Positions 13,221 through 53,964 of a stretch of DNA of 64,000 bases are shown here, piece by piece. The DNA is from a virus. A model generated the notes under the pieces. That model saw only the letters and a list, made by a program, of their open reading frames with translations, had not been told where the DNA came from and did no database searches. Location: positions 2,378 to 66,377 of the IMG/VR virus record IMGVR_UViG_3300029904_000009; one strand, 5' to 3'. Every line of letters starts with the position of its first letter. Within the stretch, counting starts at the first letter, position 1. Both the position numbers and the translations under genes were made by a program.

Positions 13221-13988
13221 TTAACCTTCAAGAGTTCCAATAGAATCATTGTCGTTTTCTGGGTCACGCATCATCCAGTGAACAAGTTTATCCTCATTCT
13301 TTGCGCCAGCCAAACGGCTCTTGACATCAAGATCATACGCCTCCCATGCTAAGTAGGTTTGCATCAAAGAGTTTAACTATAAAATAGTCATCTCTGTGAC
13401 ATCCGATAGCGAGTTTGCCGTTGCTATTGCGACAGCTCGTATGTATCTAGCCAAGAAGCCTTTCGACTTAGACTGTGGCTACATAGCAGCGAGCCTCGCT
13501 CGCGCTTTTTTCATCTTTTCAGCGATTTGCGCCGCCAGCTTATTTGCTGGATTGAACTCCTCTTTTGAACCGCTCAATAAAGAAGCACCTCCAACAATTC
13601 CGATTAACTCCTAAAAGTCATCGAATTGTTCTGGCTCAATATTGATTAGCTAATCCTTATTCTAAATGATTAAGGATCGCGGACCAATATTGATCTTAGT
13701 CGTAAAAAACAACTGAAGAAAATTATTCAAAAGCGCTCGGACATCTTTGATGCCTTCCATCTTTTGGGTCAATGATTCGTTAAAAATCATCCAATTTGTT
13801 ACATCGGGTGATTCTATGTGAAGCTACTTTTTATTCATTCGAAATATCGACAGAGCAATAAAGTAGTTCTGCTCACCAAGCATTGCGATTTCTCGCACTC
13901 TTGGCTGATGTATTGTTATTCCGAAAGCCTCAACTGGAATATCAATACCAGTGACGAGCATTAGCTCGTCAATGTTAAAATCAATCAA
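13221..13988 (-). CDS. conserved phage structural-region protein (TAG=Gln, 6 in-frame TAG)
   Basis: Open from TTG 13988 (TTGA overlap) to TAA 13221 if TAG is sense: MIDFNIDELMLVTGIDIPVE...EEFNPANKLAAQIAEKMKK...EMTIL[TAG]LNSL. 255 aa. Confidence 0.8.
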
Positions 13989-14557
13989 AAGACAGGAGTG
14001 GGTCCTTCCTTAGGATGCAACTTTTTGTCGTCCTTATAGGTTTCGACATTGTAATACAACGAAAGGCCTCCCTGTGCTTCGTTAATAATGAGCTGCTTAG
14101 CGCCCATAAAGTCAGCCACCTAAGTGCCAATAACGAAGTCATTGTTAATCATGCCGTCAATCTCGCCGGCAATGCAGTAGGGGCGCAACTTGAAATTATC
14201 CAACAACCAGAACTCATACGGCACAAGAATATCAAATCCAAGTTGGAAAGACCTGAACGTGGTTTGATCTTCCATAGGCACGAAATTATCCAGTGTGATA
14301 ATCACATAGGGCTTAGCATCATGGTCAATAGTCAGTTTAGGGACAATTCTGATCTGATTATTGAGCAACGAATATGCTTGGTCTTGATTTAACTTTGGCA
14401 GCTCCAAAGCGTGTTTATCGGTGTAATAAAGCAAGCGCTTCAAGCGCTCATTCTTCATTAACCTGTCCACTACCAGTGAGAGCGTGTTTTCAACCGAAGC
14501 GAATGATGAATAACGTCCCAACATGGATTTCTCACTTTGTGATCGTAGTAGTGGCAT
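13985..14557 (-). CDS. putative tail completion/terminator-type protein (1 in-frame TAG)
   Basis: The ORF-track ORF ends at TAG 14120, but the frame continues cleanly (VADFMGAKQLIINE...) to TGA 13985, which overlaps the next start. 190 aa. Confidence 0.7.
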
Positions 14558-14574
14558 TTTATTCCTCCTTCTCG

Positions 14575-15552
14575 TTACATCAATGATTCAACCTAGACGT
14601 GTTTCTGGTATAGAGTTCCATTTGGCATCTAATAGCCAATGGTAAAAGCGCCTGACATCATCGAATCCCAATAAACATGAATCTATTGTGCATAGACATC
14701 GTCTGTTTCTTGGAATTTAGCAGGAATACGATCCTGAGGTTTAGCGCCTTCATTCTCTACAATAATCCATTTACCGCCGGCGACAATTGCTTTGAACTCC
14801 ACTCTGAATCGAGGCTTAATGACGAGCGGACCTTCAATACCGTATTCTGTCGGATATTCGGGAATGACGGGTTGTACATTCCAAGTATTCATAATGTTTG
14901 TCTCAACATCGTCTTCTACCAAATTGGTATAATACCTGGAGCAGTTCATTTGCAGGACGCCTGGCATCGAAATGTCGTCAATCTAATCTACCTTATAGGT
15001 AAAGCTCTTTAACAAGAACTTTTGATATTGATTGAAATACGCCCTGTTTTGCTGATTGGCCGTAGCCAATACAACAAGATTTGCATTTGGTAGGTCGGCA
15101 GAACCAAATGTCGTATTCGTAGACGTAAAATCTGGATTGGAAGGACCAACCACAGAGATGAACGTCTCTTGTACTTCACGATTGCCGTCTACCCACTGAA
15201 CTTTATAATCACAACGGCGACATTGACCTCTAAAGTAGGCAAGTTCAGTTAAATCTCGCGCGTAACAAATCCAGTAAGTACCGGTATTGTCCCACCGAAA
15301 TACATCGCCGACGGAGTATTGGGCATCGAACGGAACTGATAACAGTTTCGTATCGTAGTCCATATTCTAAGTAACTGGATTGAATAAACCAACTGTCTGC
15401 TTATCCATCCCAGGATACTTCGTGAATTTCGCCGCCTGATAGGAGTATTTAGTAGCAGAAAGCATTGACCAGAGTTTATCTCTAATCATGCGGTCCTACT
15501 GTGGTGCTCCACCATAGTAGTTGAGGCGGCGTTTCATGCCTTCATAGCTCAT
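14575..15552 (-). CDS. putative head-closure/neck protein (6 in-frame TAG)
   Basis: ATG 15552 with AAGGAG RBS. MSYEGMKRRLNYYGGAPQ[TAG]DRMIRDKL...DLTELAYFRGQCRRC joins the fragments 14983-15363 and 14683-14967 in one frame to TAA. 325 aa. Confidence 0.75.
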
Positions 15553-15563
15553 GCTACCGCTCC

Positions 15564-15851
15564 TTAAATTTGAATTGACTTCAATTCAGAGATTGCTTCA
15601 AAGATACGCTTACGGAAGATCATCTTGTCTTCCGCATAGTCAAGCGCCATCAATTTGGCAATCAATACCATGAAATGAGGATTATCCTCAAACATTTTGT
15701 TGTACCCGTGCAGCTCATCAACCACTGTGTGGCGCTGAGACTGCCAATCTTCTTCATTCTCATACATAGGTAAGAGTTTGAAGATTTGATTTGTCAAACG
15801 GGTATTGTTATACTTCCAAGCATCGGGGCCAAACTTAAACTGTTTCGCCAT
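15564..15851 (-). CDS. hypothetical protein
   Basis: 95-aa ORF with AGGAG RBS inside the head operon. Confidence 0.75.
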   Translation of the reverse strand: MAKQFKFGPDAWKYNNTRLTNQIFKLLPMYENEEDWQSQRHTVVDELHGYNKMFEDNPHFMVLIAKLMALDYAEDKMIFRKRIFEAISELKSIQI

Positions 15852-15868
15852 ACTACATCTCCTTTTTC

Positions 15869-16321
15869 TCAGTGCATTCTTTTCGCCAACAAATCAAATG
15901 TTGACTCATAGTTGCCTGTCGGCCCAACTCTACGACGAGAGTGTAACATCTGCAGGCGCCTATGCTCATTTTTGGTGTTTGTCATAAGCGTCATGAGACG
16001 TTGGAGATGAGAGGCCTGGCTGGTCAGCTTGAAGTCAGTGCCTGAGAACTTCTGTCGAATTACATCAATAGAAGTGATTTGGCGCTGAAGCCAAATCTGA
16101 AGCATACCATACGCGAGAATATTGCGTTCTTCGCGAGAAAGGTCTACGTTGAAGGAATCTCCTACAATATCAATCGGCTTATCCGGAAATTCGAACAAAG
16201 GAAGAGAAGCCTCGAGAAGCTCTCGACAATCGGCCCGTGTCTCCTCCTCTGTAATTTCCATATACATATCGTCGGTAATTAACGCGAAAAACGCATCGTA
16301 TACCTCGTTAAGAGAAGTCAC
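15869..16321 (-). CDS. putative head-tail adaptor/connector
   Basis: Helical 150-aa protein downstream of the capsid gene (ILAYGMLQIWLQRQI...DFKLTSQASHL). The call is from position and a recalled family resemblance. Confidence 0.5.
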   Translation of the reverse strand: MTSLNEVYDAFFALITDDMYMEITEEETRADCRELLEASLPLFEFPDKPIDIVGDSFNVDLSREERNILAYGMLQIWLQRQITSIDVIRQKFSGTDFKLTSQASHLQRLMTLMTNTKNEHRRLQMLHSRRRVGPTGNYESTFDLLAKRMH

Positions 16322-16322
16322 A

Positions 16323-16811
16323 TTAACCCTCCCTCTTACGGAGTCTCTCCTTTGGTCTCTGAGCGGTGGGAGCTGTGCCTTCTGGCTTTTTCATAACCTC
16401 AATGGCTTTGAGCGTATCAAAACCAGTTTTCTGTTTGAGGGCATCCATCTTATTAAGATCGGTCATTGGCAACTGCCAAGCGCGAGCCTTAATGAGATCA
16501 ATAACCCCTGTTGGCGCGTATTCAAGCGTTTCCTTAAACAGCTCAAGGCTATCCTCAAGAATACACTTGTCAACATCGTCAACGAGCCAGAAATACTCAA
16601 TAGGGGCATATGGCATTGTCTTATTTACCCACTCTTCGTCCTGAACCATAAGCTCATTACGAAGGAGGGAAGCGCCGCCATCAATTTGCCAGAGAGCATT
16701 TAACTCTTGTTCAGAAAGGTCTTTACTCTCTCCTGGAACGAACACTCTACGAATATTCAATTCGGGGAGAGAGTAGACCACATTTCCATCGCTTCGATTG
16801 ATTACTTTCAT
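16323..16811 (-). CDS. conserved hypothetical protein downstream of the capsid gene
   Basis: 162 aa; AGGAG RBS; MKVINRSDGNVVYSLPELNIRRVF. Confidence 0.7.
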   Translation of the reverse strand: MKVINRSDGNVVYSLPELNIRRVFVPGESKDLSEQELNALWQIDGGASLLRNELMVQDEEWVNKTMPYAPIEYFWLVDDVDKCILEDSLELFKETLEYAPTGVIDLIKARAWQLPMTDLNKMDALKQKTGFDTLKAIEVMKKPEGTAPTAQRPKERLRKREG

Positions 16812-16848
16812 GTTATTACTCCTTTATCTCAAAATCAATCGTTACTGA

Positions 16849-17886
16849 TTAGTCCCAGTTACCGGGAACGTTATCAATAACAAGGCCCTTGTTGCGGAAT
16901 ACAGCCAGATTGTTAGTGGTGATGATACCAACACCAAACTTCTGGTAGGTCTGCAGCTCAGTAGACCAATCGCGGTTCTCAAACTCCTTAACGTGAGTCT
17001 GGCCCTCGAACACGATCTTGACGGGCTTCTGGTTGTTGGTTGGGAAGACATAGATATAGGAAGGATCAATAACCTTAGTGGCATTGGTCTCATCGGTGAA
17101 GGACTGGGGCAGAACCACTACGGGGAAGCCCTTATAACGAGTGAAGTAACCGTTGTTCCAACGCTCGTCCTTCATGGACTCGGAAATCCAGTTGTCAGAA
17201 GGCAGCAGAGTCATAGCAGCTTCCAGAGTGCAATAAATGGTAGGAGTACCATAAATAGCAATAGTCTGGAGCAGACGATCGAACTGAGCCTCGTCGAAGT
17301 TTGCTGCGCTTACCTTGTTGGTAGCGGGGAAAGCCTCGATAGCAGCAACGAGAGCCTTAGCAATCTCCTTATAGACTGCCTCGGACATACCCTCATTGAT
17401 GATGTCGAGATAATCAGACCACTGCACGCGGCCATCGAGGAACTCCTCAAAGCCGATACGAGCAGCTCCGCCGTAAGCGGTTGTCTTGATGGTGAACTTC
17501 TCGTCAGCAAGCTCGAAAGCCTCATAACGACCAGCCAGCGCAACGCGAGTTACGAACTGCTTTGCACGCTGCTCACCAATCTTACGGTGATACACCATAG
17601 TGTCACCCTGTGCAATAGTGGTTACATCGGCGAACATACCATAAGTGTCAAGAACGTTCTTGGGCATTACGGTATCAAGAGTCTGCTCAATCAGAGAGAA
17701 GACAGTGTTCTTGTTCTCACGCCACAGCTGTGGAGTGCCAGCGATCTCCTTCAGGTTAGCCTGAAGAGTATCGTTCAGGGAGTCATAGGAAACTTCCTGG
17801 CCGTTCAAGGAGTACTTACCAGAAGGATTCTTCTTGGACATCAGTACCTTAGCAAGAGCCAGGTTATCAGCATATACGAAAGCCAT
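16849..17886 (-). CDS. major capsid protein (HK97 fold)
   Basis: 345 aa downstream of the protease/scaffold and decoration genes. Very strong codon bias, AGGAGG RBS, no TAG. Motifs ENKNTVFSLIEQTLD and YKGFPVVVLPQSF. Confidence 0.85.
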   Translation of the reverse strand: MAFVYADNLALAKVLMSKKNPSGKYSLNGQEVSYDSLNDTLQANLKEIAGTPQLWRENKNTVFSLIEQTLDTVMPKNVLDTYGMFADVTTIAQGDTMVYHRKIGEQRAKQFVTRVALAGRYEAFELADEKFTIKTTAYGGAARIGFEEFLDGRVQWSDYLDIINEGMSEAVYKEIAKALVAAIEAFPATNKVSAANFDEAQFDRLLQTIAIYGTPTIYCTLEAAMTLLPSDNWISESMKDERWNNGYFTRYKGFPVVVLPQSFTDETNATKVIDPSYIYVFPTNNQKPVKIVFEGQTHVKEFENRDWSTELQTYQKFGVGIITTNNLAVFRNKGLVIDNVPGNWD

Positions 17887-17905
17887 CTGTAAATCCTCCT
17901 TTCAA

Positions 17906-18472
17906 TTAGGCTCCCATGGCCTTGCTCATCAGCTTAACGCCGGGCTGGCCATCGGGCATAGTGTAGACCTTGGTAACCTCAAACTGATAAGTAGTGTTGG
18001 TGCCCTTGGTCTTAGTCAGGTAACCGTCATCACCAATATACAGTACGTCGCCGACTGCCAGAGAATCAGGCTCCTCGTTGATAGTGTTTGTGGTGTAAGC
18101 ATCGTTGTCGGGCACAATACCGATCAGCTTGGGATACAGAAGGCCGTCCACCTTATCGGCAGCACGATCAACGAAATCGGAATAACCCATACGCTCGTCA
18201 TACAGTTTCTTCTCAGAGTATACGAGGTAAGGCTTTGCAGTAGCAGGTGCAGCCCCAGGCAGAACCGCGATGCGGCCCATAGGAGAAGTCTCAGTGGTGT
18301 CGGGGATTACACACAGGAACATACCGTTCTCAAGCTCTGCAATAGGTGTTGCGGCGCCAGCGTCCTCATAAGCGGGAGCCTGGGCCTCAATGTAACCGAA
18401 GGTAATACCGGAAAGACGATTAGCCTCAACCTGGCCATACTTGCCTTCGGTCTTTACAAAAGTAGCAGGCAT
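17906..18472 (-). CDS. capsid decoration/minor head protein
   Basis: 188 aa between the protease and capsid genes; YGQVEANRLS, ELENGMFL and QPGVKL motifs; no TAG. Confidence 0.6.
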   Translation of the reverse strand: MPATFVKTEGKYGQVEANRLSGITFGYIEAQAPAYEDAGAATPIAELENGMFLCVIPDTTETSPMGRIAVLPGAAPATAKPYLVYSEKKLYDERMGYSDFVDRAADKVDGLLYPKLIGIVPDNDAYTTNTINEEPDSLAVGDVLYIGDDGYLTKTKGTNTTYQFEVTKVYTMPDGQPGVKLMSKAMGA

Positions 18473-18526
18473 TACTTTGTATCTCCTTTCAAAAAAGTTT
18501 ATAACCTTTTTATCAAGAAAAACTGA

Positions 18527-20365
18527 TTAAATTTTCAGTTCTTTCTTCTTGTCAAGCTCTAAGGCCTGAATGAAAAATTCAGGGAGTCCGTCCAGAGAGT
18601 GATCTACTGCAGCAGCGCCTGCGACGCTAACCTGGAATCCAGTAGAAGGATGTCCGCTGTTCTTCTGCTTACGGGCATAAGTTACAGCGAGCTTGGACTC
18701 GATTTCATCGAGAGAATACTCATCGAGCTTCTCTACAACAGGCTTCATCTCTTCCTCAGTGAGCATCTCACTGTAAGATGTTACCATTGCTTGTTTCTTT
18801 TCTTTCTCTTCCTCGGCTGCTTTGGCGCGATAGCCGTTCAGCTCATTGGTAAGAGTTTCGACTTGAGACTTCAAATCCTCAATCACCGCAGCATAATCGA
18901 CTGCTGGAGTGCCCTCAGGCTCGGCAGCAGGCTCTGTGCTAAACTGTGTTGTAGGCTCAGTAGGCTCTGGGTTAGTGGCAGGCTCAGCACTCGGCTCGCC
19001 GCCCTCTCCGTTTGTGGAGAAAGTTGCTGGTCCGGGAATGTCGCTTGGATCTGGGTTTCCGACGGAAGGATCTGGCAAGCCGCCTTCGCTTCCTTCGGGC
19101 TTGGGTTCGGGTTTAGGATCATTTCCTTCGCCATCTGCTGCGAAATTTCCCTTCTTCTTTTTCTTCTTGTCGTCGTCATCTCCACCGTCGTCATTGCCGC
19201 CGTTGTCGTCTCCGCCATCGGGGTCATCGGACTTAGGATCGTCTCCATCGTCTCCATCATCTCCGCCATCGTCACCTTCTCCTTCGTCTTCGTCATCTTT
19301 TTTCTTCTTAAAGACTCCGGCACCAGCAGGAGCAGGTGCAGGCTCAGGAGTAGCTGCAGGAGCAGCAGGAGCGCCGGTAGAAGCAGTAGAAGCGGGATCT
19401 TGTGTAGCAGTTACAGTAGTGCCACCAAGTGGCTCAACAGGCTCGGGAGCAGGAGGCTCCTTAACAGACCAGGTCTGTCTTACGGCCTGCATCTCACTAT
19501 CAAGCTCAACTGTGTCTTCGCTTGTAATAGTAAGATTTACGCGTACATATTCGAGAGACTCGCGATCTTGGAGAATAACAAAGATGGTGCCGCCCTCAGA
19601 GTAAATACCCTGAATATCGTATTTCATCTCAGCTCCACGATTGCGTAGCTGCATATATACTGCGTCAGTCAGATTCCAGCCAAGCTGAAGAGCGTACTCA
19701 AGAGTAATCTTTTCAGGTTTAGGCTGAAGTTGCCCATTCATGACGTAATACCTCCTTCCTAAGATATTCTCCACTTGCTCAGCAAGGCTCTCATACTGTT
19801 TAGTATAAGAGGACATTATCTTAGCCCCTTCAAAACAGGGTGCATAAGCATCACCAAGAATACAGAGCTTGTCAAGAGTAGCATTAGTGAAAACGAAAAC
19901 ATCGCCTTCATAGTAGCCACTCATGGTTTTCTCTTCGAGTTCCATTGACTGCCCTTTATTCAATGCTTGGGAGGCTTCCTCATATTGCCGAGTCCACAGA
20001 TAGGCTTTACACATCAGATAAGTTCTGACTTGGCCATCTTCCATAAAGTCTTGATACCAAGGAGCATCAAAACTTACGAAACCATAGGGTTTTGTAATAT
20101 CTTCAATGTTCACCTGACCATTGGAAATAGTTACCTTACGGCTATGTTGAACAAAGTCACCGGACTCTTTGTCGTAGAAGCCTACTACAGGAGCGCCAGG
20201 AAGGGTCGCAGCGATTTGACGACCAACCTCTTTGTTAATCACAGTATTGTTCTGATTGGGATTTTCTGAAACATAACATACCTTAATGGTAGCTTCGGTA
20301 ACAAGCTCGTTAATCGGCTTGGTTTCCAGAACTTCCATGGTATTCACAATTGCCTGTGATTCCAT
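18527..20365 (-). CDS. prohead protease/scaffold fusion
   Basis: ATG 20365 after AAGGAGG. N-terminal protease-like region (TLPGAPVVGFY, KPYGFV, GQSMEL, LCILG..PCFEGA), a long acidic/Pro linker, and a coiled-coil C-terminus. Confidence 0.75.
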   Translation of the reverse strand: MESQAIVNTMEVLETKPINELVTEATIKVCYVSENPNQNNTVINKEVGRQIAATLPGAPVVGFYDKESGDFVQHSRKVTISNGQVNIEDITKPYGFVSFDAPWYQDFMEDGQVRTYLMCKAYLWTRQYEEASQALNKGQSMELEEKTMSGYYEGDVFVFTNATLDKLCILGDAYAPCFEGAKIMSSYTKQYESLAEQVENILGRRYYVMNGQLQPKPEKITLEYALQLGWNLTDAVYMQLRNRGAEMKYDIQGIYSEGGTIFVILQDRESLEYVRVNLTITSEDTVELDSEMQAVRQTWSVKEPPAPEPVEPLGGTTVTATQDPASTASTGAPAAPAATPEPAPAPAGAGVFKKKKDDEDEGEGDDGGDDGDDGDDPKSDDPDGGDDNGGNDDGGDDDDKKKKKKGNFAADGEGNDPKPEPKPEGSEGGLPDPSVGNPDPSDIPGPATFSTNGEGGEPSAEPATNPEPTEPTTQFSTEPAAEPEGTPAVDYAAVIEDLKSQVETLTNELNGYRAKAAEEEKEKKQAMVTSYSEMLTEEEMKPVVEKLDEYSLDEIESKLAVTYARKQKNSGHPSTGFQVSVAGAAAVDHSLDGLPEFFIQALELDKKKELKI

Positions 20366-20446
20366 CAAGTTCCTCCTTTCTTTGTCGTGATACGCTGGCA
20401 AACGGAATAATTTCTTGATTTCGTTTTCCAGACTTACTATTATAAC

Positions 20447-20558: not shown

Positions 20559-20575
20559 TTTGAAATTTTTTGAAA

Positions 20576-22753
20576 TTAAACCATGACAATGGCTTCATTT
20601 AGTGACAGGCTCATAGTGGGGTTATTTCCAAACTGCATAGAAATATTGTTAATCACAAAGTCTCCTGTTACCCCCAATTCTGGGAAATTAAGATGAACGA
20701 CTTTATTAACATCCAAATACAAAATTGGGATGGTTGTTAAAGATGCCGTTGCATTATAAATTAGATTATTATACAGCATTGCACGAACAGATTCATAACA
20801 GGTGCCAAAAGAATTAACTTCTTGGAAGTACTATAGCTAATCTGGATTTACGAATGAATACGCCTATCCAATAGAGATATAATACTAAGTATTTTCAATC
20901 ATTTCTTGAGGTTGACCAGTATTTTCAATAAATACTAAATCAGGAATTTCTCCTTCAAAGACTTGATTGATTTTAGTATTTTCCTACGCGATAGTTCGGC
21001 GGCCAATTCTATTCACTCCATAAACGCCGACTCCTGCGCTTGTGTCAATAATATCCAACCAATAGCGCAATTTTTCTGGAGCGATTTTTACATCAACGGT
21101 ATAACCCGCCCAAGGAGTCTCATCGTTATCTTCTCCGAAATGGTCTTCCCAACTTCTCTGGAAAGAATCCATCCCTTTTAAATCCCAAGTACTAGACGGA
21201 TCAAAGATATTTCGCCATTCGGCCATTAACTCTTCGTCATAATAAGAACCTTCAGTAGAAGTTCCATATGCCAATAATGCCTGACGATATAACTCTTCTC
21301 TCCAATTAAAATGATAGGAGGCATCCAAATCAGGAAATGCTTCATCGAGACTTAAAGCAGCGACTTCTCCCCAGGTCTCATTAACCTCATCTGGAATATA
21401 AGCATTCTCTACCACATAGCGAGAAATAGTTCCATCATTTTTATTCATCACTTTACGAATAGTCTTATGGCATAAAGAATAGTTATCTCTAATTACCTCA
21501 ATCTCTTCTTCTGTAACAGGTTTTGGTATATCTTTTGGCCGAACATCAATCGCTAAATGATATCTTACCATGACTTCACTGTTAGAATCATCTTGCTTAG
21601 TTCCCCAACAAATAAAATCATTCTTTATCTTTGAATAATCTGGATTATAGCCGATCTATGTTACTAAATTCTAATCTGCAAATTCATTGATAAAAGCATC
21701 GTCAGTATATCTTGGGAAATATAGACTCTATAAAGATTTATCTAAATCTCGAGTCTATTGAGAAATGTTGCCCTAAGAATCTACAACCTCTACTGTAATT
21801 GTTGGATCGTAATTCAAAGGAGTAACTCCCGTTGCTTGATAATTTTTAATCTGTCTGAAATGAAAAATCCCTTCTGCATCATAGAAATATTCATAATTTC
21901 CAAGAGTGGAGACAATTTCATCAAGGAGATTGGTTACTGTCTACCCCATTTTTAAAATGAGTTCTCCAGGATAAGTTAAAGGCGTTTCTCTATAACCTAC
22001 TAAATCTCCCTGATAGTAAGTATTTTCAAAACCGGCAACGGGAGGTGCGGCAATAACGAAAGAACGCCCACTGTTCTTAGCATCTATTTCACTTTGAAAA
22101 TTGATCGGAGTACTGCCTCGCCATCTTACAACTTTACGGCCGACATCTGGGACATCTTCAATTACAATACGAGAAGGATGCTCTCCGCCATAATGATTGA
22201 CAGCTTCAAAAATGATTTCTTTAATTAAAGGATACTCAGTAGTATAGTTCCCATCTTTATCATAAATAATCCTATCGTGGAAACTGGTATTAGCGGGGAG
22301 AGTGCCTCCACAAGTTCCGTTTAAAAATGCCATCTTGTCCTATAATTCAATACTCACCTATGCAGAAGAGACTGAAATGGAAGAAGAAGCTCTCGTAATA
22401 ACAAAAAGTCCTTGCTTAAACCAAAGCTCTTCTCCATACTGCGCGTATTGAGGTAAGTGATAAAAAGGATTTTTTAATCCTAAAGACAGAGAGATCTTTT
22501 TATCAATAGCAATCAAATTATTTATGTCAGTAATATTCTTTGTGTCCTCATCAAAAACAATGGTTAAAGAACACGTTTTTCTTACGGCAGAGTTAGCGGC
22601 TACCGTCATGGAGCCGCTAACTACTTTGCCTTCAAGACGAGCAATAGGATTCTCTGTTTCAAAATCAAGAACCATAATCGCCGCCAAATATTCTCTGACT
22701 TTATGCTAATTGAGCTTTAATAAAAAAGATCTATCGTTCATAAAATCAGCCAT
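20576..22753 (-). CDS. tail/baseplate protein (many in-frame TAG)
   Basis: ATG 22753 with AAGGAGG. Four ORF-track fragments share one frame to TAA 20576. Motifs VSIEL[TAG]DKMAFLNGTCGGTLPA and PDYSKIKNDFICWG. 725 aa. Confidence 0.75.
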
Positions 22754-22763
22754 AAACTCCTCC

Positions 22764-28700: not shown

Positions 28701-28721
28701 AATTCTCCTCCTTAACTGTGA

Positions 28722-29111: not shown

Positions 29112-29129
29112 ATTTATTTCTCCTTTTTA

Positions 29130-30767
29130 TCAGTTTTGTGCCGCCTAATTTGCGATAGTCTTGTCAGATTTTTTATCATTTGGTAGTTGCGGACGGCCGG
29201 CGCCACCAGTAGAATCTGAAGTTACGGAACCAGAACGTGCAGTATCAGCCTATCCTCCAACGGGTGTAACTTTACCACCAGAGAGAATTTGCTGCTGTTG
29301 CGCCTTAATATCACTCCAAGTATCAGAAGACATGGTATTGGAGCTAAATGGAGGCAGCATATAAGCATCAAGCTGCATAATCTGCTGTTCGAGTTTTGCC
29401 ATAGAGATAACCTCTTTCTGGGTATGCCCAAGAGCAACCATTGGCAGGAAGCGGCTAAAGCCGATCTTTGTAAGATTCTCATACTTACTGGACATATCAG
29501 AAGAATTAAAGATAGAAGTAAGCAGCATCTTCATGCGGAACTTCAAATCTTTCTTGTTAAACTTCCATTCAAGATAGCGATTAAAGAATTGCTCAAATTG
29601 CAGAAGCAGAGGTTTAATATAAGCCTCGTCAATAATAATTGACTTTTCAAGAGCAAGGTTGCCGTCGGTATTAAACAAATTGGCTGAAATACCAAGGGCG
29701 TTATAAACACTATTTTGAGCGGCTTCGAGGTTATTTTGAGATTCAGTACCGTTACTTGTTGCCAAATCTTCAAGCGATACTTCTGCAACAGTAGACAATA
29801 CACTTACTCCAACAGCATCACCGACCATATCTACGGCATTTTGGTTTAGCTGTTGAAGTTCTTTCATAGTGAATGGAATTTGACCATTTTGATCAAGTTC
29901 AAACTTCTGAATCAAAATCTTTTGGATTTGCTGAAGCAACTTCTCTTTTTCAAGATCTTCTACTTCATCAAGTCCAATAATGTCAGGAATTGCGTATAAG
30001 AAGGGTGGAATGTCCTCATCATTAAAGTTAAACTTAAATGAACGGTTCATATCCAGCAAAATCCAGCCCGCCTCATCACCTTGCTCTTCAGCAGGGAGTT
30101 TGCCAGCTTTATATTTGCGATACCCGGCTTGGAACTCTTCAGGGAAAAGACCAAGAAGTTTCTCTCTATACTTTTGATCAGAAGTTACTTTATCAAAGTA
30201 TTGGACATTAAATTCCACGAGAGGCATTCCCTTATAAAGAAAACGGGAACGACAGAAATCAACAGGCAAATCTTGGACAACAAGTTTATCATTTACATCA
30301 TCACAGATGTAACCATAATAGCAGCCCTCAATACAAACCGCATTTGCCCACTTACGGCACATTAACTGAATCGCCGAATTATCAAAGTGCTCGAGTAGCA
30401 CATTGAATTTCTTTAGAATCTTGTCGCTAAACTCGTCTGTCATTTCTAAATCAAGATCGAGATTTGGATAAAGCAGAAAGTCATATTTATAAATATCTGC
30501 CAAATAACGAACAGCACGAGCATAGACGCCATTGGTTTGGAAGAAATACTTTGACAGAGAACGAATTTGTTTTAAATCTGTGCCCTTAGTTGTCTCGATC
30601 ATTTTGTCATGTGTCTGTCGAGTCCAGTCAACAGAATTTCGGCCCTTGCTATCCTCTTTATAAATAATAGCCTCAGCCGGTTTAATAGTCATTTTACGGA
30701 CTTTTAACAAACCAAAGTCCATTGGCGGGCGCGGAGTATTGACGCGCTTAAACATAGGCTTATCCAT
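29130..30767 (-). CDS. portal protein (2 in-frame TAG near the C-terminus)
   Basis: ATG 30767 after AAGGAGG; SKYFFQTNGVYARAVRYLA and DLPVDFCRSR. Past TAG 29250 the frame continues ADTARSG...GGAGRPQLPNDKKSDKTIAN[TAG]AAQN to TGA 29130. 545 aa; lies downstream of terL. Confidence 0.8.
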
Positions 30768-30781
30768 ATTGCCCTCCTTTC

Positions 30782-31171
30782 TCAATCAAAGTATTTACCC
30801 TACTCCAAAATGGAGTCAAGTGTCATTGAATTATATTCAGTGTATGGAATTGCGACTAAAGTATACCCTTTAACCGCGCAGTAGGAACGCTTTCTCTTAT
30901 CGTTAGCCTACTGTCTTGCAAAGCCTTCCTTAGTTTGGAACTTTTGCTTGTAATGCTATTCACCTTGCATTTCCAAAAGAAACTTTGGTCTTTCTTTTTC
31001 CATATCTTCTGGAGACTCAAAAATAGCAAAATCAAAGCGCAGCGGGATGCCTCGGTCTGATTTCAAATCAGGGAAAGAAAATTCTGTAACATACAAAATG
31101 TCTCCCTAATCAAGAAGCATAGCTGCCTTTCGCTCCATGATGGAAGGATGGTCATTTTCTTGCCAAGGCAT
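30782..31171 (-). CDS. Vsr/DUF559-like PD-(D/E)xK endonuclease (4 in-frame TAG)
   Basis: PLRFDFAI...LLEMQGE[TAG]HY...FARQ[TAG]ANDKRKRSYC...LVAIPY matches the family pattern E-x-x-G-E-Q-H-Y. AGGAGG RBS. 129 aa; absent from the ORF track. Confidence 0.8.
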
Positions 31172-31208: not shown

Positions 31209-31233
31209 ATTTTATAACATCAAAAATAAAATT
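31209..31233 (-). promoter_or_regulatory. candidate phage late promoter motif, copy 3
   Basis: On the minus strand AATTTTATTTTT-GATG-TTATAAAAT, upstream of the endonuclease/portal genes. Confidence 0.55.
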
Positions 31234-33052
31234 ATTTCTTTCTCTTTCGTAGATTAGAAGTGTATTGTCCATTACCCTTCAAAGTAATACGAGAGCGCAT
31301 AGACTTCTATCCATCTCGACGACCAGCGATTTTCATAGCCTGGTCCCAAGAAATCGCTTGGCGCATCAAAGCACGGTCATCAATCTCTATTTTAATATAC
31401 CAAAGAGCATAGCCCATAGCAGACACTTTATCCTTCTTGATATTCTTATTTGTACGGTCAAGAATAATGTTTACACCTTCATGCTTCTCTTCCAAGTTAA
31501 TCATCTAATCTTTCAAGATAGATGTTTGCATAAATGGCACAATCCAATTTGCTTTATCGTCTTCAGTCATATCTTTAAACTTTAAAGCACGACTTGCGTC
31601 CATTTTCATCTTGGCCTGACGCTCATCAATAAGAAAACGCAGTTTGCCAGTAGTTAATTGCGTTTGCAGATTAGCATACATCTCTGTATTGAATGGAGCA
31701 TTTGCTTTGATAATATAAAGCAGATTTGGGATCATATCTGCACTCTTAAACTGGTTATAGTAGCCTTTATCATCATTGGCTACACCCCAAGGTCGCAAGA
31801 ACTGATTGGTGCGAACATCTACTTGAGATTTAATCAATTCATCAATTAGGCCGGCGCCAACGCCCGCGCCGTCGATGACGACTGCTCTTGGATGATATTT
31901 TTCATAGAGCAGCTTAATTTCAATCGCTTGCTCGGCGAAGTGCATTTGCTCGAAGGAATAGATATTGACAAGATGCTTCGTAGATGTTGTACCTGTTTGT
32001 GGGATATATTTCCATACACAAACTTCAGATTGGTCAGAGAAACGGCCAACGTCAATACCAAATACATAATCTACGCCTTTGCCAAGGTTCTTTTCTCTCT
32101 CAAATACTGGTTCTTGGAGAGAACGGTATTTGTCAAATGTCTCTGCCGCGAAGTAAGCATTTTCAGAACCACTGGACCAGCGACTCAAATATTCACGACC
32201 AAAAGAAGTGGGATTGAATGTGCCACTCATCTTTTGCTAGCGAATAAAGTCCATATTCTGCAATCCTGCAATAATAGGGATTTTATAGGAACCACCCAGC
32301 ACGATTGCCTTATTTGGCTCTGTTAACTGACGCAACAGCGTTCTAATCAAAGTATGATAGGCATAGGTATCCTTAAATCCAGCGGTTGTAACGCAAATCT
32401 TTTGCTGAGAGATAGTTTCAGCCTTATTAAATTCGCCATTTGCCGCACGACGCTGAATAGCGAGGGTAGGGATAATAACTTCCTGAATAATATCAGGATC
32501 ACCCTCAATAATCTCCTCAAGAGTCAAGCCAGTGAAACGCAGACCACGAGAAGATTGTTTAGCGGCAAGGTTGCTCATTTGAGAGCCGTTCTTAAAGTAA
32601 ATAGTGAACTGGTCTTTGACCTTCTCTGTCTTTCTAATCTCAAAGCGCAAGATTGGCAACAAAGTAAGGATTTCTGAGACTTTGGACTCCAAAATGGCCG
32701 CAGACTGACCTTTAGTTGTAGCCGCAATAGCCAACTTAGTATTTGGATATAAAATGCACTCTAACATATTCCAGAGGTCATCAATAAAGGACTTTGAAGT
32801 ACCACGGCTGAATGTTAAGAATACATCTTTGTATCTCGCCATCGCGCGCAAAAAGATTCGCTGGTATGGGAACAGTTTGAAAGTACAATCTTCTCCAGAC
32901 GCTTGAATATACATATCAACAAGTTTATCTGGATAAGCTCGATAGAATGATATTGCTTTTCGATATTCTTCGATATTATCAAGGATTTCTTGTTTGCTGA
33001 CTACTCGCGTAAGAAGATTGTTTTGGTTATTCTTCTTAATCGGTAGTGGCAT
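31232..33052 (-). CDS. terL: terminase large subunit (3 in-frame TAG)
   Basis: ATG 33052 with GAGGAGG. ATPase motifs FSRGTSKS, RGLRFTGLTLEE and CVTTAG; nuclease motifs FGIDVGR, VIDGAGVGAGLID and KDKVSA. Fragments are joined at TAG 32237, 31505 and 31307; TAA 31232. 606 aa. Confidence 0.9.
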
Positions 33053-34202
33053 TACCCTGTCCCTCCTCAATATCAGCAATATCGCCCAATAATTCGCGCT
33101 CAAGAGCAGCGAAATCATCATAGTCTTCGACAGCATTTGGAAGCGGGTCTTGTGCCAAAATTGCTTCGGTATTCTCTACCATTTCAGCAATATTAGATTC
33201 GCCGCGTACCAGATACTCAGTATACTCCTACATATCTCTCAATACCTAATCAATCTTATCATTAGGCTGATCGACATAGAACTCTGGAATAAAACCACCC
33301 TCACGCTCAACCAAAAATGCTAATTGAGAAATAGCAAAAGTGGTATGCTGACGGTCTTTTTGCTGGACGGGTGCCAGATTTGCAGATTTAATGAACATAT
33401 CAAGCTGACGACCGATTTGAGATGCAGAAGCTACATCATCAATATCGACATATTTGTTCATCTTCATGGTCATCTTACAAATCATGCGCGCATTGGAAAT
33501 TGCGATGGGGTCTTGAATAACATAAGACTCCATCATATCTTGAAGCATTTGCTCCATATAGAGGTATTGGTCCTCAGTATAGTCTTCGCCCCAGTTTACT
33601 TTTAACTCATTGATTTCTTCTTGAGTTAAATTGTATTTTGAAGTTTCTGGCGTTAAACCATAGAGAGCAGACATATCTGGCGCAGTAACCATTGCTTGAG
33701 CAGGTTTTTGAGGCGCAATATCACCAAAGTTCAGCATTTCTTCAACTTTGGCTTCTGCTTCAGATTCACTGTCAGTCTCTTGACGCATAGCGGCAAGCAA
33801 AGACTCAGTTTCTTCTTTGGTTTTAGCTTCAGAATCTGCCCAGCGATATTTCTTATATTGGTTCAAGTGCATCAAGCTAATGTACTTGCCAACAATAGAT
33901 CCAGCTTTTGCACTCTTTTTCATAAGAAGTTTGCGCCACTCACTTGGGATATATGGTACATCTACTTCTTTAAGGATTGGTAAAAAGGTCATAGGGTCAG
34001 TATCATCGACCCTCATTGCCAGACAAGTTTTACACTCTGGAAGTACTCCAGTAGGATGCTTGTCTGTACGAGAGGTCTTAAAGAATTGCTTCTCGTCTAA
34101 AGTCTTTTTACAGCAAGTGCAGAAATATTTTCCATTTCCTTTGGAAACAGCTTGCTGATTTGGACGGTACAAATCGCGTACCGCATTGAAATCAATTTTC
34201 AT
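33036..34202 (-). CDS. zinc-finger protein, putative terminase small subunit (2 in-frame TAG)
   Basis: CTCC...ECKTC zinc motif. The frame continues past TAG 33246 (KID[TAG]VLRDM[TAG]EYTEYLV) to TAA 33036, overlapping the terL start. 388 aa. Confidence 0.6.
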
Positions 34203-34326: not shown

Positions 34327-34328
34327 AG

Positions 34329-35023: not shown

Positions 35024-35042
35024 TACGGGTGCCTTTCTTTTT
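35005..35042. terminator. bidirectional rho-independent terminator
   Basis: AAAGGCACCCGTA-TAA-TACGGGTGCCTTT 13-bp stem between convergent genes. Confidence 0.9.
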
Positions 35043-42459: not shown

Positions 42460-42477
42460 ATTTTACTCCTTTCTATC

Positions 42478-48400: not shown

Positions 48401-51400
48401 TAAGAAGAAGCTTTAATCTAATCGGAAGCTTCATTTATAGACTCCCCATATAAATTTATATCATTTTGCAACTATTCTAATTCTTCTGCTGTTCCATCAA
48501 AAGAAATACCTGCATTATCAAGTGCGGCTTTAAAATCTTCTGGAGAAGTTGCTTCCATTAAACTCTATAAGTGTTCATCAATTTTTTCCTAAACTTGCTC
48601 ACTACCATTAAGACCTAAAAAGGAAGCTACAGTATCTCCCATATTACCTAAGCTACCTTCAACATTATTTATATTTTTTGCAATACGTCGTCCTTCTACT
48701 CTTCTTTCAGCTTCTGTTAAATTCGCTTGTCCCATAGCAAAAGCATAATCTGCCTAATACTACTCATTATCTATCTATTTCTAAGCCTATTTTAATTTAT
48801 CTTCATCGATTTTTAATAAGCCGTCAGCATCTCTTTCATATAACCCTGCAACGCTTATTCCTAAAGATGATAGGGTGCTAATTAAATTCAAAGCTTGCTC
48901 ATTAGCATTTTTTAAGGCTTCTGCAAATTCATCTGTACCTCTTTCACAGTCCTCTAAAGTCGTAATAGCCTAATCATAATTTTCAATAGATGATTTTAGT
49001 TCATCCGCTCTTCCTTTAGCTTCTTCTGCACCTTCCGCCAATCCCTGAGCCGCTTCCTTGGCTTTTTCTAATTGAGCTTCTGGCTGGACATTTCTCCATT
49101 CAGTAAAATTATACACTAATTTTGCTGTGGCGGCAACAACCGCAACTATTGCAGCAGCGGCAATCCAACCTGCTGGCCCTGCACTGGCTAAAGCACTTCC
49201 TAATTTGGTGACTACTCCTGTTAATTTAGATCCAGAAGCTGCTGCTCCGGCCATAGAAGAGCCTAGTGCCGTAGTACCTTTTGAGGCACCAGCCGCAGCC
49301 GCTCCGACTCCAGTAATTTGTGCTACTTGAGCACCAGTAGCTCCCTGAGCAGCAGCGCTCCTTCCAGTCGAAACTATTGAAGTACCATCTAGCCCAGCGC
49401 TAGTAGCCATATTTCCAACGGCATTCCACTTTTTTGTTGAGGCGCCCTTAAGACCTGATAATTGACCTTTACTAAATTTTCCTGATCTTACCGCTGCCTA
49501 ATATTTTTGTTCAGCAAGCGTTGCCGCTGTAATTGCCGCTGTTAATTCAGCATAATCTTTAGTTAATTCGTCTGTGTCTTTACTTGCCCCTTTCATTGTT
49601 GCTCTTACAGTTTTTAAAGTAGCAGCCATGGTCTTAAATTGAATTATTGTAGCAACAATATTTGGAATCATTAGTAATAATTGAGCAATAATCGCTCCCC
49701 AATTTATTTCGTCTTGATCTAAAGCATTTCCTAAAGCCATAAATTGGAAAACTAACAAACCAGTATTTGAAGCAAGCTATAATAACTATTGACCAAATAA
49801 CTAAACACTAGATCCACTTAACTAAAATGCTGCAGATACTTGTTTTGAGAAATTAGAAGTATCTTTCAAAGCAGCAGTTAATTTTTGCTACTACTCTATT
49901 ACTTCCGGTATTCTCTAAGCGTAAGCTGCAATTGATTGCCCTAACCTTGTATTTCCCATTCCAGCATTTTGAGCTGCAGTTGAAATTTCATCTAAAATAG
50001 GAGACAAAGTCATCATATTTCCAATGAAGCCTTTTAATCCCTATTTGCTTGTCTAAACTGATAAAGCTTCCAGCTCTTTTACTAATCCAGAAGTTCCCGG
50101 AACAGCCTAAGCAACAGATTTTGCCATCATCGTCATGCCATCAGCCATTTTCTGAGGGGCGGCAGAATCAATTCTAGACATACCCTGTTCAACTTGACTT
50201 AATCCCTATAATAATTGGGCCTAAGCCTACATTGCTTTTGCTGTTTCTTCGTCTTCTCCATTTCCAGATTTTCGAGCTGCCTACTATAAAGCGATGGCTC
50301 TTCTTTCCATGGCTTTTGCAATCTATTCCTAAACCTATGCTTCTGTTCTACTAGTGCGCAAATTGTTTATCGATTCAAAGGCAATCTACTAATTAGTATT
50401 TAAAGCCTATTTTAACCATTCAACTTTATTTTTCGCTTCTTGAGTTCCTGTTTTTTCTATTGCATTAATTTCTGCCTAAGCCAAAGCTATATCTTTTGTA
50501 ATACGTAATTTCTGTTGATCATACGCATTGTTAGCTATTGCATTAGTAACATTATTTGCGTTTGCTGGTCTAAAGTGAACACTTTGGACACTATTCATCA
50601 TGGCTTCACTATCTCTTCTAATTGCTGCAAGCTAATTATCTAAAGTTAAAGAATCTTTCCATGAATTCCAAGCCGCTTTAATATTATTGATATACTTTAA
50701 TAGATTTCTAGACAGATAAAGCCCAATAATAGTTAATATTCCTGGGATGCCACCAATTGAATCTAATATTACATCAATAGTATTACCTACTTGCTCTAAA
50801 CCGTTATAAAATCCTTTTAAAGTATCTTCTTCAAAAATATTACTAAAGGCTCTAGACCAAGCTTCTGCAGAATTTGTCATAGCAGAATCTAAAGAATCCA
50901 GAGATGTTAAATATTGTTTTTCTAAAGTTTCTGATCCAGATTCTGATAAAGCAGAATTATAATTAGCCATAAATTTATCCCAATTATTAAATAATGCTAA
51001 TACTTGACCAAACTATCTCGTTCCGCCGATTGCTTCTGCTAAAGCTATCTACTATTTCTAAGAATATTCTTCCCAACGATTTCCTAAATCTAAAATAGTC
51101 TCACCCAAAGGAATTAAATCACCATTAGTATCTAAAATCTAAACTCCTAAATCAGCTAACTGCTAAGAGACTCTACCTAAAGTTACCTCTCCATCTGTTC
51201 CACTGGATACTAATTGATCAAAACGGGAGAAAATAGTTTTATATGCATTACCGATAACTGAAGCAGATTGCTAAGTAGTATCACCAACGGTAGCAATAAT
51301 CGCCGCCAGCATATCGTATTCAACATTCATTTGAGAAGCCGCTGAAGCAGAAATCTACATAGCAGTCGCTATATCTTTAAATTCAACTGCTGTTTCAGCA

Positions 51401-52194
51401 CCCATTCTAGCGCCTACAGAAGCTGCTCTCTCTAGCTATTCTCCCTACATTTGATAAGTATTCCATACGGCAGTTAATTGCTAAGACATTTCTTGAGTTG
51501 ACTGTCCAGCTGCCTAAGCCGCTTTAATTGTAATCTAAGAACGACGCTCTACTTCTTCGTCGCCTAAACCTTGTTGATAAAAAATCTAAGCCGCATAAGC
51601 ATAATCATCAGCAGCGACTCTTAATTCCTTAGCATTTTTAATAACCGAATCAAAAACCTACTACATTTCAGAAGCACTCTTACCAGATACGATCGCAATG
51701 GTATTTAATTCAGAATTTAGCTCTTTCACCCAATTAACCGCTTGGCTAATTTGAGATGCAACAAATTGTTGTATTTGCGCAGCAGCGGTAAATTTAACAG
51801 ACTGAGTCATAACTCTCTACATTTCTTTTATTTTAGAATTGATATTTATTAAATTTCTATTTGCTGTAGCAAAGGTAGTTAAAAAAGAATCCAAAGAATT
51901 TGAAAAAGCAGGACCAGCTTTTGCCAAAGTTGATACCAACTAGGAAGCGCTAGTCCCTGCTTTCTAAAGTTCAGTATTTAATGAAATAAAAGAAACGCCT
52001 TTCTCAGTTGTGGCTTTTTTAAGGGCGTTCTCTAAAATTTTTGCCTACTTTACCGCTGCGGCAATTTCATCAGACATCCCTTTTCCAGCAGTTGGCATAC
52101 TAAAAGCGTGCTAAATTTCTTTTTGAATTAAATTTAGCTAGGATTGTAACATTTTAGTATCTGCTGAAAATCCTATCTAAAAATTAATTGCCAT
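42478..52194 (-). CDS. tail tape measure protein (TAG=Gln, TAG-dense)
   Basis: ATG 52194 with GGAGG to TAA 42478 in one frame (3238 aa). TP901-like core (AAIIATVGDTT..SASVIGNAYKTIFSRF), Ala/Gly-rich and coiled-coil segments. All ORF fragments share the frame. Confidence 0.85.
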
Positions 52195-52213
52195 TATTTC
52201 CCCTCCTTAAATT

Positions 52214-52780
52214 TTATTTATCGGATTTCATAGCTTCATTGTTTAACTCAAACATTTTTAAAATTTTATCAATATCAGGATCCTCTTGAAGGATGGATTT
52301 AATAGTATCAACTTCCATCAACTGTCCCATTTTTTCATTTGAAATCTTGTCTAAAATACCCGCGGCACTGTTGTTATAAGACATAAGTTCATGAATCGTA
52401 GTAGAGAAGTTTCTCGCGATAAAATTTAATTCTTCTGGATCAATTAATTGTTTTACTTCTTCTACAAGGTTTGTTGAAAAAATAATATCATAAGATTCAT
52501 ATACTTCTGAGGGAGTGCAATTTGGAGATTCAATAAAACTTAAATCTAAATTTGTAAAAAATTTAATTATAGCAAAATTCTCCATTACTTCCACGAGCGG
52601 GGTACTAACAAAAGTTCTATCACTAATACTGTAGTTAATCCCCCATTGAATTAAATCCATAAGCTGTTCAAAAGGAATTCTTTTTTTAACCTCAACAACA
52701 ACATCTCCCTTTTGAATGTACCCAATTTGAGGCTCTTCAATGGGTCCAAGATTTGCAAGTTTAATTTTTTCAATAGCCAT
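52214..52780 (-). CDS. putative tail assembly chaperone
   Basis: 188-aa helical protein immediately upstream of the TMP gene; no TAG. The call is positional. Confidence 0.5.
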   Translation of the reverse strand: MAIEKIKLANLGPIEEPQIGYIQKGDVVVEVKKRIPFEQLMDLIQWGINYSISDRTFVSTPLVEVMENFAIIKFFTNLDLSFIESPNCTPSEVYESYDIIFSTNLVEEVKQLIDPEELNFIARNFSTTIHELMSYNNSAAGILDKISNEKMGQLMEVDTIKSILQEDPDIDKILKMFELNNEAMKSDK

Positions 52781-52806
52781 TATAAGGCCCTCCTTTTACT
52801 TATTTA

Positions 52807-53964
52807 TTATTTGGTTAAAATACCAGGATTATAAAATCCTTTTTGTAAATAAAAGTTAAATGTAGTAGTATCCCATTTAGGGACTTTCCCTTTTTTTCTC
52901 CTTGTTGCGCTCTACTACACAATCTATTTTTCTGGTACGTCGATATCTCCCATTGGTTCTCCTGCTGCGGCGAAAACATATTTAGTCCCTTCCAAATATG
53001 AACGCCATTCTTTTTCTCGAATAATTTCCATAAGAGTATCTATATCTTGTGTTAAAGATACCTCTAATCTTCCTCCAGTATAAAGGATATTTCTTCCAAT
53101 AATAATCCTTTTATTACCCTAAACATTATAGCTTCCTTTATGTAATAAATAATTAAATAAAGCCTCTTCTGATTTACTAAACTCATTATTTAATACATAA
53201 CCCATATATTCTTCGAGGCCAATAGATCTTACATTTGCCACCCATTTATACTATGGAAGATACTTTTTATCCTAGTCCCAAAGCTAATCATTATTTAATC
53301 CTTTAAGAAAATCTTTAAATCTCTTCTAAAATTGTTCATCAGTAAAAGTAAACCATCGTATTCTATTAGGATTAGAGTAATATTTTAATTCTAATATGCA
53401 ATTCCCTAATAAAAGGTCACCAGTAGGATTTGATCCTGCCACCGTAGCTAAAATAGTCTAGCACATTTCAATTCCTACATTTTCTTCTAATATTCTTGCC
53501 GCTTCTTTTGCTGTAATCAAAATATCCTATTCTGCCTATTTAACATATTTATTAGTAGTAAAATCCTTAAAAAATTTCATACTAAAACGCTACAAAGAAA
53601 ATGCCAGTGTAGGAACGGGAGTAGCATCATCTTTATTTACATCTAAAGAAGGAAAATGCTTTTTTACTAGATTTAAAAGTTCTTCATAAACACACCACTC
53701 AAAATATCTTCCTACAGCATTATCCCAAGAACCTCCTGCAAAAGTAGAAATATTTACTCTGCCAATATTCCCATTCTCTGCTCCTCTATTTATCCTTTCC
53801 AGTATTTTTTCTGCCCAATCAAACATTTTATTAGTTTTTACATTAATTGCTCCATTTAATAAATTTACTATTCCAGTCATATCTACGATTTCTTCTCCTG
53901 CATTTATGGCTTTTTGCAAAACAGCTTCATATTCTTTTTTAAATTGAGCTTCTGTAATTGCCAA
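52807..53964 (-). CDS. hypothetical protein (many in-frame TAG)
   Basis: TTG 53964 after AGGAGG. I read the frame through to TAA 52807 and found only TAG interruptions. 385 aa. Confidence 0.7.

Follow-up and report, generated by a model that had tools for sequence, protein, structure and literature searches.

The locus considered here raises the question of whether the codon TAG is read as glutamine (Gln) in the late genes of a phage and, if so, by which tRNA. The window under analysis is a stretch of 64,000 nucleotides (nt) covering positions 2,378 to 66,377 of IMG/VR record IMGVR_UViG_3300029904_000009, a contig of 68,681 base pairs (bp) whose completeness is estimated at 49% in the IMG/VR record. 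It covers roughly one half of the genome of a large siphovirus that belongs to the proposed genus Phassvirus and is related to Firmicutes phages of the SPbeta, 949 and Enterococcus EF1 types. The main point of comparison is phage phAss-1 (OQ749652.1), a 135,976-bp phage from the human gut listed in the NCBI taxonomy under the "Caudoviricetes code 15 clade". The initial annotation, made from the letters of the window, had proposed that TAG is reassigned to Gln (genetic code 15) from position 13,221 to position 53,964. The analysis supports this proposal: with a probability of about 0.93, the phage uses genetic code 15, TAG means Gln, and the lineage uses TAG, CAA and CAG synonymously.

TAG is a sense codon in the late region

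Coding density was measured as the greedy, non-overlapping cover of open reading frames (ORFs) over positions 13221-54003. Under code 11 the cover was 0.627, made up of 65 ORFs, and it rose to 0.970 with 22 ORFs once TAG was read as sense; the cover of the flanks, 1-13220 and 54004-64000, was unchanged by the same reading. Two control codes, with TGA as tryptophan (Trp; cover 0.653) or TAA as Gln (cover 0.825), did not restore the genes and were rejected. Twelve minus-strand late genes contain 220 in-frame TAG codons and no in-frame TAA or TGA that would break them, and all 12 terminate with TAA or TGA. The three long frames singled out by the initial annotation (22764-28700, 35041-42459 and 42478-52194) exist at those coordinates when TAG is read as sense. 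With the frequency of TAA and TGA in that strand's two remaining frames as the baseline, the chance of such frames staying open is about 1e-55 for the first (1978 amino acids, aa), 1e-79 for the second (2472 aa) and 1e-117 for the third (3238 aa). As judged by family matches, the joined frames correspond to full-length tape measure, portal, terminase large subunit (TerL), HNH and tail proteins. The four TAG codons that had been named as examples are likewise all in frame: 30956-30958 is residue 72 of the HNH protein, 22340-22342 is residue 138 of the tail protein, 15496-15498 is residue 19 of gene 14575-15552, and 31505-31507 is residue 562 of TerL. Across the window, 37 of the 38 tabulated genes terminate with TAA or TGA, the exception being gene 59842-60144, which ends with TAG. 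Low-copy virion, packaging and lysis-associated genes of this phage use TAG as a sense codon, and TAA and TGA stay terminators.

The distribution of TAG is uneven. The late minus-strand genes hold 219 TAG in 14,195 codons, against 339 CAA and 186 CAG, and the plus-strand genes hold two TAG in 4,868 codons. The view that recoding extends across the late genes holds for the 12 genes mentioned above but not for the TAG-free stretches 15564-20401, 10009-13151, 28722-29111 and 52214-52780. The first two of these contain genes with a higher G+C content at third codon positions (GC3) that mostly prefer CAG, and the other two are AT-rich and prefer CAA. The TAG-rich genes show GC3 values of 0.21-0.44 and also prefer CAA; in the tape measure gene, TAG accounts for 45% of the sum of TAG, CAA and CAG. 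GC3 and the share of TAG among Gln-type codons are negatively correlated (Spearman rho -0.57, p 2.5e-4).

The amino acid at TAG

The meaning of TAG was examined through codon exchange among close relatives, namely phAss-1 and IMG/VR loci with at least 88% DNA identity, a set that covers 132 of the 220 TAG sites; the query carried X at each TAG, which removes any bias toward a particular residue. Counted as distinct alternatives per site, the codons found at TAG sites were CAG (22) and CAA (16), followed by codons for serine (Ser; 8), Glu (5) and Ala (3), plus singletons. CAA lies two mutational steps from TAG and is nevertheless abundant, which points to a synonymous path via CAG. The reverse comparison gave the same picture, as 42 of the 310 Gln-codon sites of the window (13.6%) carry TAG in some relative, and the corresponding rate was at most 1.5% for every other residue. 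For instance, in the tail protein gene of strains that are 97-98% identical, all changes at TAG sites are to CAG or CAA. Residue 318 of TerL is encoded by CAG or CAA in 20 of 20 close relatives, and residue 325 of the YonG-like protein by CAA in 11 of 11. Both TAG sites of the portal gene (residues 512 and 547) are CAA or CAG in relatives; at residue 512, CAA occurs in 13 of 20 close relatives and TAG in the remaining seven. This exchange of TAG with CAG and CAA, far above that with any other codon, bears out the assignment to Gln that the initial annotation had made.

Comparison with distant homologs gave a weaker signal in the same direction. A Codetta-like test was run on 37 standard-code IMG/VR loci without in-frame TAG, in which only 22 TAG sites were informative (at least five homologs each). 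Gln was the most enriched residue at the TAG columns (3.8-fold) and gave the best likelihood, with Ser at 2.1-fold; the profile-type check that the initial annotation had suggested is in this sense favourable, but weakly so, given that Gln and Ser are nearly tied when sites are weighted equally. Since informative sites were few and the two residues close, the assignment relies on the codon exchange among close relatives. The further claim, that TAG sits where these families have Gln, can be retained only in part. It applies cleanly to the HNH sites, where residues 72 and 88 are encoded by CAG or CAA in divergent homologs, and residue 630 of the tail/baseplate protein is a TAG at a column with invariant Gln in the family. 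It does not apply to residue 562 of TerL, where six cultured relatives have Glu and an intermediate relative alone has Gln, or to residue 138 of the tail protein, which is mostly Lys in standard-code relatives. Among the six cultured relatives, none showed Gln at the TAG sites of TerL, the YonG-like protein or the portal protein, the sites other than residue 562 being variable or unaligned. The TAG codons appear to lie mostly at variable, polar positions. A homolog collection that includes full-length relatives of the 725-aa tail protein already translates TAG as Gln; its Gln columns are circular and were not counted.

Suppressor tRNAs and alternative readings

No tRNA gene was found by ARAGORN or Rfam in the window or in the entire 68,681-bp contig, and no Rfam family of any kind matched the contig. 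The initial annotation had likewise seen no tRNA(CUA) in the window and had expected the decoder to lie elsewhere, which agrees with the tRNA(CUA) genes found in relatives just past the position where the contig ends. Of the 36 tRNA genes in phage phAss-1, three have the anticodon CUA, with lengths of 75, 91 and 77 nt; two of these stand in tandem with tRNA-Leu(UAA), adjoining the NrdD gene (anaerobic ribonucleotide reductase), and the tandem pair was confirmed as tRNAs by Rfam. In four IMG/VR relatives the tandem shows 95-98% conservation and its longer tRNA, of 91 nt, is identical to that of phAss-1, and a fifth relative holds the tandem in a diverged form (about 85% identity over part). Five metagenomic contigs encode a 169-aa protein identical to one at the left end of the present contig, and the tandem is present in all five. 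As these contigs are about 94% identical to the present one over a shared 10.6 kilobases (kb), the tandem can be placed 4.1-4.3 kb past its left end. All near-complete relatives examined carry tRNA(CUA). Decoding by phage tRNA(CUA) genes located beyond the assembled contig, seen directly in the relatives, can be inferred for the present genome.

The shorter tRNA(CUA) of the tandem, of 75 nt, has U1·C72, G2-C71, G3-C70, G10 and G73, which match the acceptor and D-arm determinants of the Escherichia coli glutaminyl-tRNA synthetase (GlnRS), and its identity elements look Gln-like. Matches to PF00472 (release factor) and PF00749 (GlnRS and glutamyl-tRNA synthetase, GluRS) were absent from phAss-1 and three relatives that are 90-99% complete, and control genomes were positive; this extends to complete or near-complete genomes the earlier remark that no release factor is visible in the window. 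As no phage GlnRS or GluRS is encoded, charging must be carried out by a host enzyme, and as no phage release factor is encoded, tRNA(CUA) must compete with host release factor 1 (RF1).

The 91-nt tRNA(CUA), which lies outside the window, at 3443-3533 on the minus strand in phAss-1, and is also present in at least 10 relatives, combines a Gln-type body with a second hairpin in the variable region. In the body, the D stem is 4 bp long and includes U11-A24, and the D arm resembles that of the phage tRNA-Gln(CUG). The 7-nt loop of the extra arm, CUCUGAA, is a copy of the tRNA-Gln(CUG) anticodon loop and differs by one base from the true anticodon loop of the same molecule (CUCUAAA). Two scans of IMG/VR, in which only the anticodon loop and the T loop were constrained, yielded distinct long tRNAs of two kinds, 54 with the anticodon CUA and 24 with the opal-suppressor anticodon UCA. 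The Gln loop motif YU[C/U]UG[A/G] was present in 35 of the 54 long tRNA(CUA), in none of the 24 long tRNA(UCA) and in two of 108 ordinary Ser, Leu and Tyr tRNAs. The Trp loop motif U-CCA-A was found in all 24 long tRNA(UCA) and in neither of the other two groups (Fisher tests: Gln motif, p = 2e-19; Trp motif, p = 7e-27). Ordinary phage tRNAs at the same loci have the loops CUCCAAA (tRNA-Trp) and CUCUGAA or CUCUGAC (tRNA-Gln(CUG)). When 37 Gln-type members were folded with RNAalifold, a cloverleaf with an extra hairpin was recovered, with compensatory changes in 19 of 21 pairs and an invariant U-G-A in the extra loop. No description of such an anticodon-copying long arm was found in the literature searched. 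A tentative interpretation, for which the odds are somewhat below even, is a "two-headed" suppressor tRNA whose extra arm would offer the cognate anticodon as an identity element to host GlnRS or tryptophanyl-tRNA synthetase, both of them anticodon-dependent, or in which either arm could decode with the same residue.

Among the alternatives, it must be considered whether TAG is a sense codon that is ambiguous or encodes another residue, with Ser as the main candidate and Glu or Lys as weaker ones. The long variable arm and G73 of the 91-nt tRNA(CUA) are features used by seryl-tRNA synthetase (SerRS), and Ser, enriched at TAG columns in the distant homologs as noted above, is the second commonest alternative in the close relatives. 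Residue 290 of gene 14575-15552 (codon at 14685) alternates between TAG, TCG and TCA. TAG sites of this Ser type also include those at 21943, 21673, 21658 and 20833. Nevertheless, TAG replaces Gln codons 30 times as often as Ser codons (13.6% vs. 0.4%), CAA is among its commonest partners although two steps away, and TCG is rare. In addition, the Ser excess comes largely from one variable gene, 20576-22753, and may simply reflect TAG lying at variable polar positions. As for the long-arm tRNA, its body is of the Gln type and its conserved extra loop copies the Gln anticodon loop, which is not required for SerRS recognition. Decoding as Glu has in its favour the Glu found at residue 562 of TerL in the cultured relatives. 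Taken together, a residue other than Gln, or an ambiguous one, is improbable.

A second alternative is that TAG is read by the host, either because the host itself uses code 15 or because it holds an amber suppressor, so that the phage tRNA(CUA) would be dispensable. The contig lacks a tRNA gene, and recoded relatives without tRNA-Sup genes also exist (PMC10607447). However, the contig is 49% complete and stops 4 kb short of the tRNA locus, the tandem stands at the same locus with 95-100% conservation in every near-complete relative examined, and TAG is avoided in early and replication genes, which is what would be expected of a codon that the uninfected cell cannot read. Decoding by the host only is accordingly very improbable; together with decay or artefact, it is nearly ruled out by the statistics of the frames, by conservation in many independent assemblies and by the conserved tRNA locus. 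That TAG codons are real stops in a decayed or defective phage or a mis-assembly, with illusory long frames, as the many short code-11 ORFs annotated in the deposited phAss-1 record might suggest, stands refuted by the absence of TAA and TGA from 14,000 codons of the long frames, and is further opposed by TAG positions that dozens of independent assemblies, drawn from different samples, either keep or exchange with Gln codons, by full-length family matches that cross TAGs and by dedicated tRNA(CUA) genes in relatives.

The reading of TAG as Gln by phage tRNAs should be set against several points that weigh on the other side. The support for Gln is at the sequence level throughout, and the presence of the decoder rests on synteny with relatives that are about 94% identical and not on the present contig. 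Ser codons make up 8 of the 23 non-Gln alternatives at TAG sites, compared with 1 of 34 at CAA and CAG sites. In the distant homologs, several TAG sites fall on columns with Ser, Lys, Glu or Ile; Ser is the commonest residue at five sites and Gln at four, and with equal site weights Gln is ahead of Ser by only 1 log-likelihood unit over the 22 sites. The early plus-strand gene 59842-60144 (100 aa; phrog_27263/5321) ends with TAG where its PHROG profile ends, and its readthrough would add 53 codons across a consensus TTGACA-17-TATAAT promoter at 60205-60233. TAG may therefore act as a terminator early in infection and be read as sense in the late phase. In the expression model given below, temporal gating and drift are inference only.

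Gene content, relatives and expression of the recoded genes

The features of the window are listed in Table 1. The late genes occupy the minus strand, with one plus-strand gene among them whose in-frame TAG is shared with phAss-1, and are flanked by plus-strand genes for replication and for early functions.

Table 1. Positions of genes and gene blocks in the window, with family matches and in-frame TAG codons
Feature	Position	Strand	Matches and TAG content
Replication module: AAA_24 ATPase, YorF-like, SF1 helicase, DnaE-type polymerase	152..9941	+	zero in-frame TAG in ~3150 codons
Two tail-fibre genes: 493-aa beta-helix, 538-aa structural protein	10009..13151	-	PF13229/PF16318; PMC10607447; TAG-free
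Three virion-module genes	13221-13988, 13985-14557, 14575-15552	-	phrog_4051, phrog_6123 (virion structural), phrog_31155; 6, 1 and 6 in-frame TAG, respectively
Late block with higher GC3, including the major-capsid-like gene	15564..20401	-	TAG-free
Major-capsid-like gene	16849-17886	-	phrog_4088 3.7e-64; tblastn to annotated major capsid proteins; CAG 15, CAA 0, TAG 0
Tail/baseplate-type protein, 725 aa	20576..22753	-	phrog_32343 2e-36; 14 in-frame TAG
Ig-domain (He_PIG) virion protein, 1978 aa	22764..28700	-	PF05345 4.2e-31; 26 in-frame TAG
Portal protein	29130..30785	-	phrog_2739 3.6e-69; 2 in-frame TAG
HNH homing endonuclease, between TerL and portal	30782..31171	-	phrog_9084/559; 4 in-frame TAG
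Terminase large subunit, SPbeta YonF type	31232..33190	-	PF17289, phrog_2; 3-4 in-frame TAG
YonG-like protein, upstream of TerL	33036..34202	-	phrog_3314 5.8e-52; 2 in-frame TAG
Lone gene within the late block, 211 aa	34388..35023	+	1 in-frame TAG
Giant late protein, 2472 aa	35041..42459	-	no known family; 36 in-frame TAG
Tail tape measure protein, 3238 aa	42478..52194	-	PF10145 4.7e-22, PHROG tape-measure families; 107 TAG; ends TAA
Late protein, 398 aa	52807..54003	-	12 in-frame TAG (71% of Gln-type codons), GC3 0.21
Endolysin	54826-55671	+	followed by gene 55668..56288
Gene after the endolysin, 206 aa	55668..56288	+	single TAG, 55872-55874; CAG in phAss-1
Early region of small genes	56300..64000	+	many consensus sigma-70 promoters; no in-frame TAG

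For the gene that follows the endolysin, the 206-aa form is the product in phAss-1, where the TAG position is CAG, and the 68-aa form obtained under code 11 is specific to the present strain. The HNH gene splits TerL and portal, and in cultured relatives TerL is followed by the portal gene, either at once or with one small ORF between them. Each of the six public contigs shown that encode an identical AAA_24 protein ends 45-330 bases upstream of gene 152-1153, which suggests a repeat or a strain-variable junction upstream of this gene, at about positions 1-150 of the window. Between 54000 and 64000, 32 sigma-70-like promoters were found against 10.8 expected, five of them perfect (12/12) and nearly all on the plus strand. 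This 54-64 kb region is G+C-rich, and the deposited annotation of phAss-1 calls minus-strand equivalents there, such as that of 61578-62546. In the window such minus-strand ORFs (e.g., 61578-62546, 322 aa, ending with TAG) were rejected as spurious, as family matches, ribosome-binding-site context and promoters favour the plus strand. Paralogy of genes 59842-60144 and 58860-59111 was also considered and was unsupported by BLASTP (E 0.12).

Over a conserved 37 kb, or about 54% of the contig, DNA identity to phAss-1 is about 94%, and the matching blocks are collinear, the gene order being the same. The product of identity and coverage is about 0.5, lowered by variable tail genes. The capsid-like protein encoded at 16849-17886 is 99.1% identical to a protein of phAss-1, and amino acid identity to relatives is 98-99% for the portal protein and 99% for the capsid-like protein. 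No megablast match to phAss-1 was obtained for positions 21310-29119 and 35063-53958, which comprise the end of the tail protein gene and the genes for the Ig-domain giant, the 2472-aa protein, the tape measure protein and the 398-aa protein; these parts are mosaic among the IMG/VR relatives, and for the tape measure gene a 94% match to one relative is confined to the first 3.3 kb. The same genes are recoded in both phages (TerL, portal, tape measure and Ig-domain protein), and many TAG codons occupy identical positions in TerL, HNH and the genes of 13221-15552. The present contig differs from phAss-1 in lying under the 95% species line, in the length of its tape measure protein (3238 aa vs. 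3149 aa), in single TAG/CAG states such as that at 55872, and in being a fragment without the tRNA region.

The genus Phassvirus was proposed for phAss-1 and two relatives by Babkin et al. 2023 (Int J Mol Sci 24:15302, PMC10607447), and the members used here for the genus criterion were phAss-1, BK046881 and BK025033. Identity and synteny with phAss-1, a tape measure protein of the expected size (range of about 3150-3210 aa; 3238 aa here) and an unusual capsid protein argue for membership of the present phage in this genus. For phAss-1, TAG was found in 41 ORFs and recoded to Gln, three tRNA-Sup-CTA genes and no aminoacyl-tRNA synthetase were described, and the predicted host is in Eubacteriales (PMC10607447). 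TAG-to-Gln recoding is therefore already published for a lineage that is 94% identical to the present one (PMC10607447).

The standard-code relatives of this lineage include Enterococcus phages EF1, H1 and VRE9, Geobacillus phage E3, Lactococcus phages of the 949 group and Bacillus SPbeta-like phages. They share the homologous module of YonG, TerL (YonF), portal and capsid and a genome size of 125-165 kb. In contrast to the present phage, their YonG-like, TerL and portal genes are annotated as single full-length coding sequences under the standard code and have no in-frame TAG, and they have no HNH gene between TerL and portal and no giant genes between portal and capsid. Among 78 tail-protein loci with at least 600 aligned codons, in-frame TAG was present in 36 and absent from 42. 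At five loci, the homologous genes of IMG/VR relatives in the wider clade have 3-9 in-frame TGA but lack in-frame TAG. The wider clade seems to hold standard, TAG-recoded and TGA-recoded members.

Recoding of this kind is also known outside the lineage. Borges et al. in 2022 reportedly described code 15 clades of gut phages, Lak phages and some crAss-like phages being recoded as well, and Peters et al. in the same year are said to have validated code 15 phages by proteomics. The present phage resembles Lak, crAss-like and other code 15 phages in reading TAG as Gln, in the probable use of phage tRNA(CUA), in the concentration of in-frame TAG in structural and lysis genes and in early genes that are compatible with the standard code. 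It differs from them in belonging to an unrelated siphovirus lineage of Firmicutes (SPbeta/949/EF1-type) and in that no phage release factor or aminoacyl-tRNA synthetase was found in the complete relatives examined.

These features fit a model in which the early and replication genes, with host-type promoters and no in-frame TAG, would be readable by the uninfected cell. The TAG-rich late genes would have to wait until the phage suppressor tRNAs had built up, following the temporal-gating model proposed for recoded phages. If suppression is leaky or costly, TAG may be purged from high-copy genes with high GC3 and a preference for CAG, such as that of the capsid. In AT-rich, weakly selected genes, TAG could accumulate from CAG by C-to-T drift.

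The present contig represents a new, divergent member of its group and brings no new principle, as the biology is established for the genus and for other gut phages. The practical consequence lies in annotation: the 41-kb late region appears as about 65 fragments under code 11 and as 22 genes under code 15, among them genes for two giant virion proteins and for the tape measure protein of 3238 aa. The anticipated fragmentation of such a recoded Firmicutes-type phage by standard annotation is visible in the GenBank record of the 94%-identical phAss-1, which is fragmented under code 11. A notable loose end is how the suppressor tRNAs obtain Gln without a phage synthetase, for which the anticodon-copying extra arm would be a testable answer that may also be of interest to suppressor-tRNA engineering.

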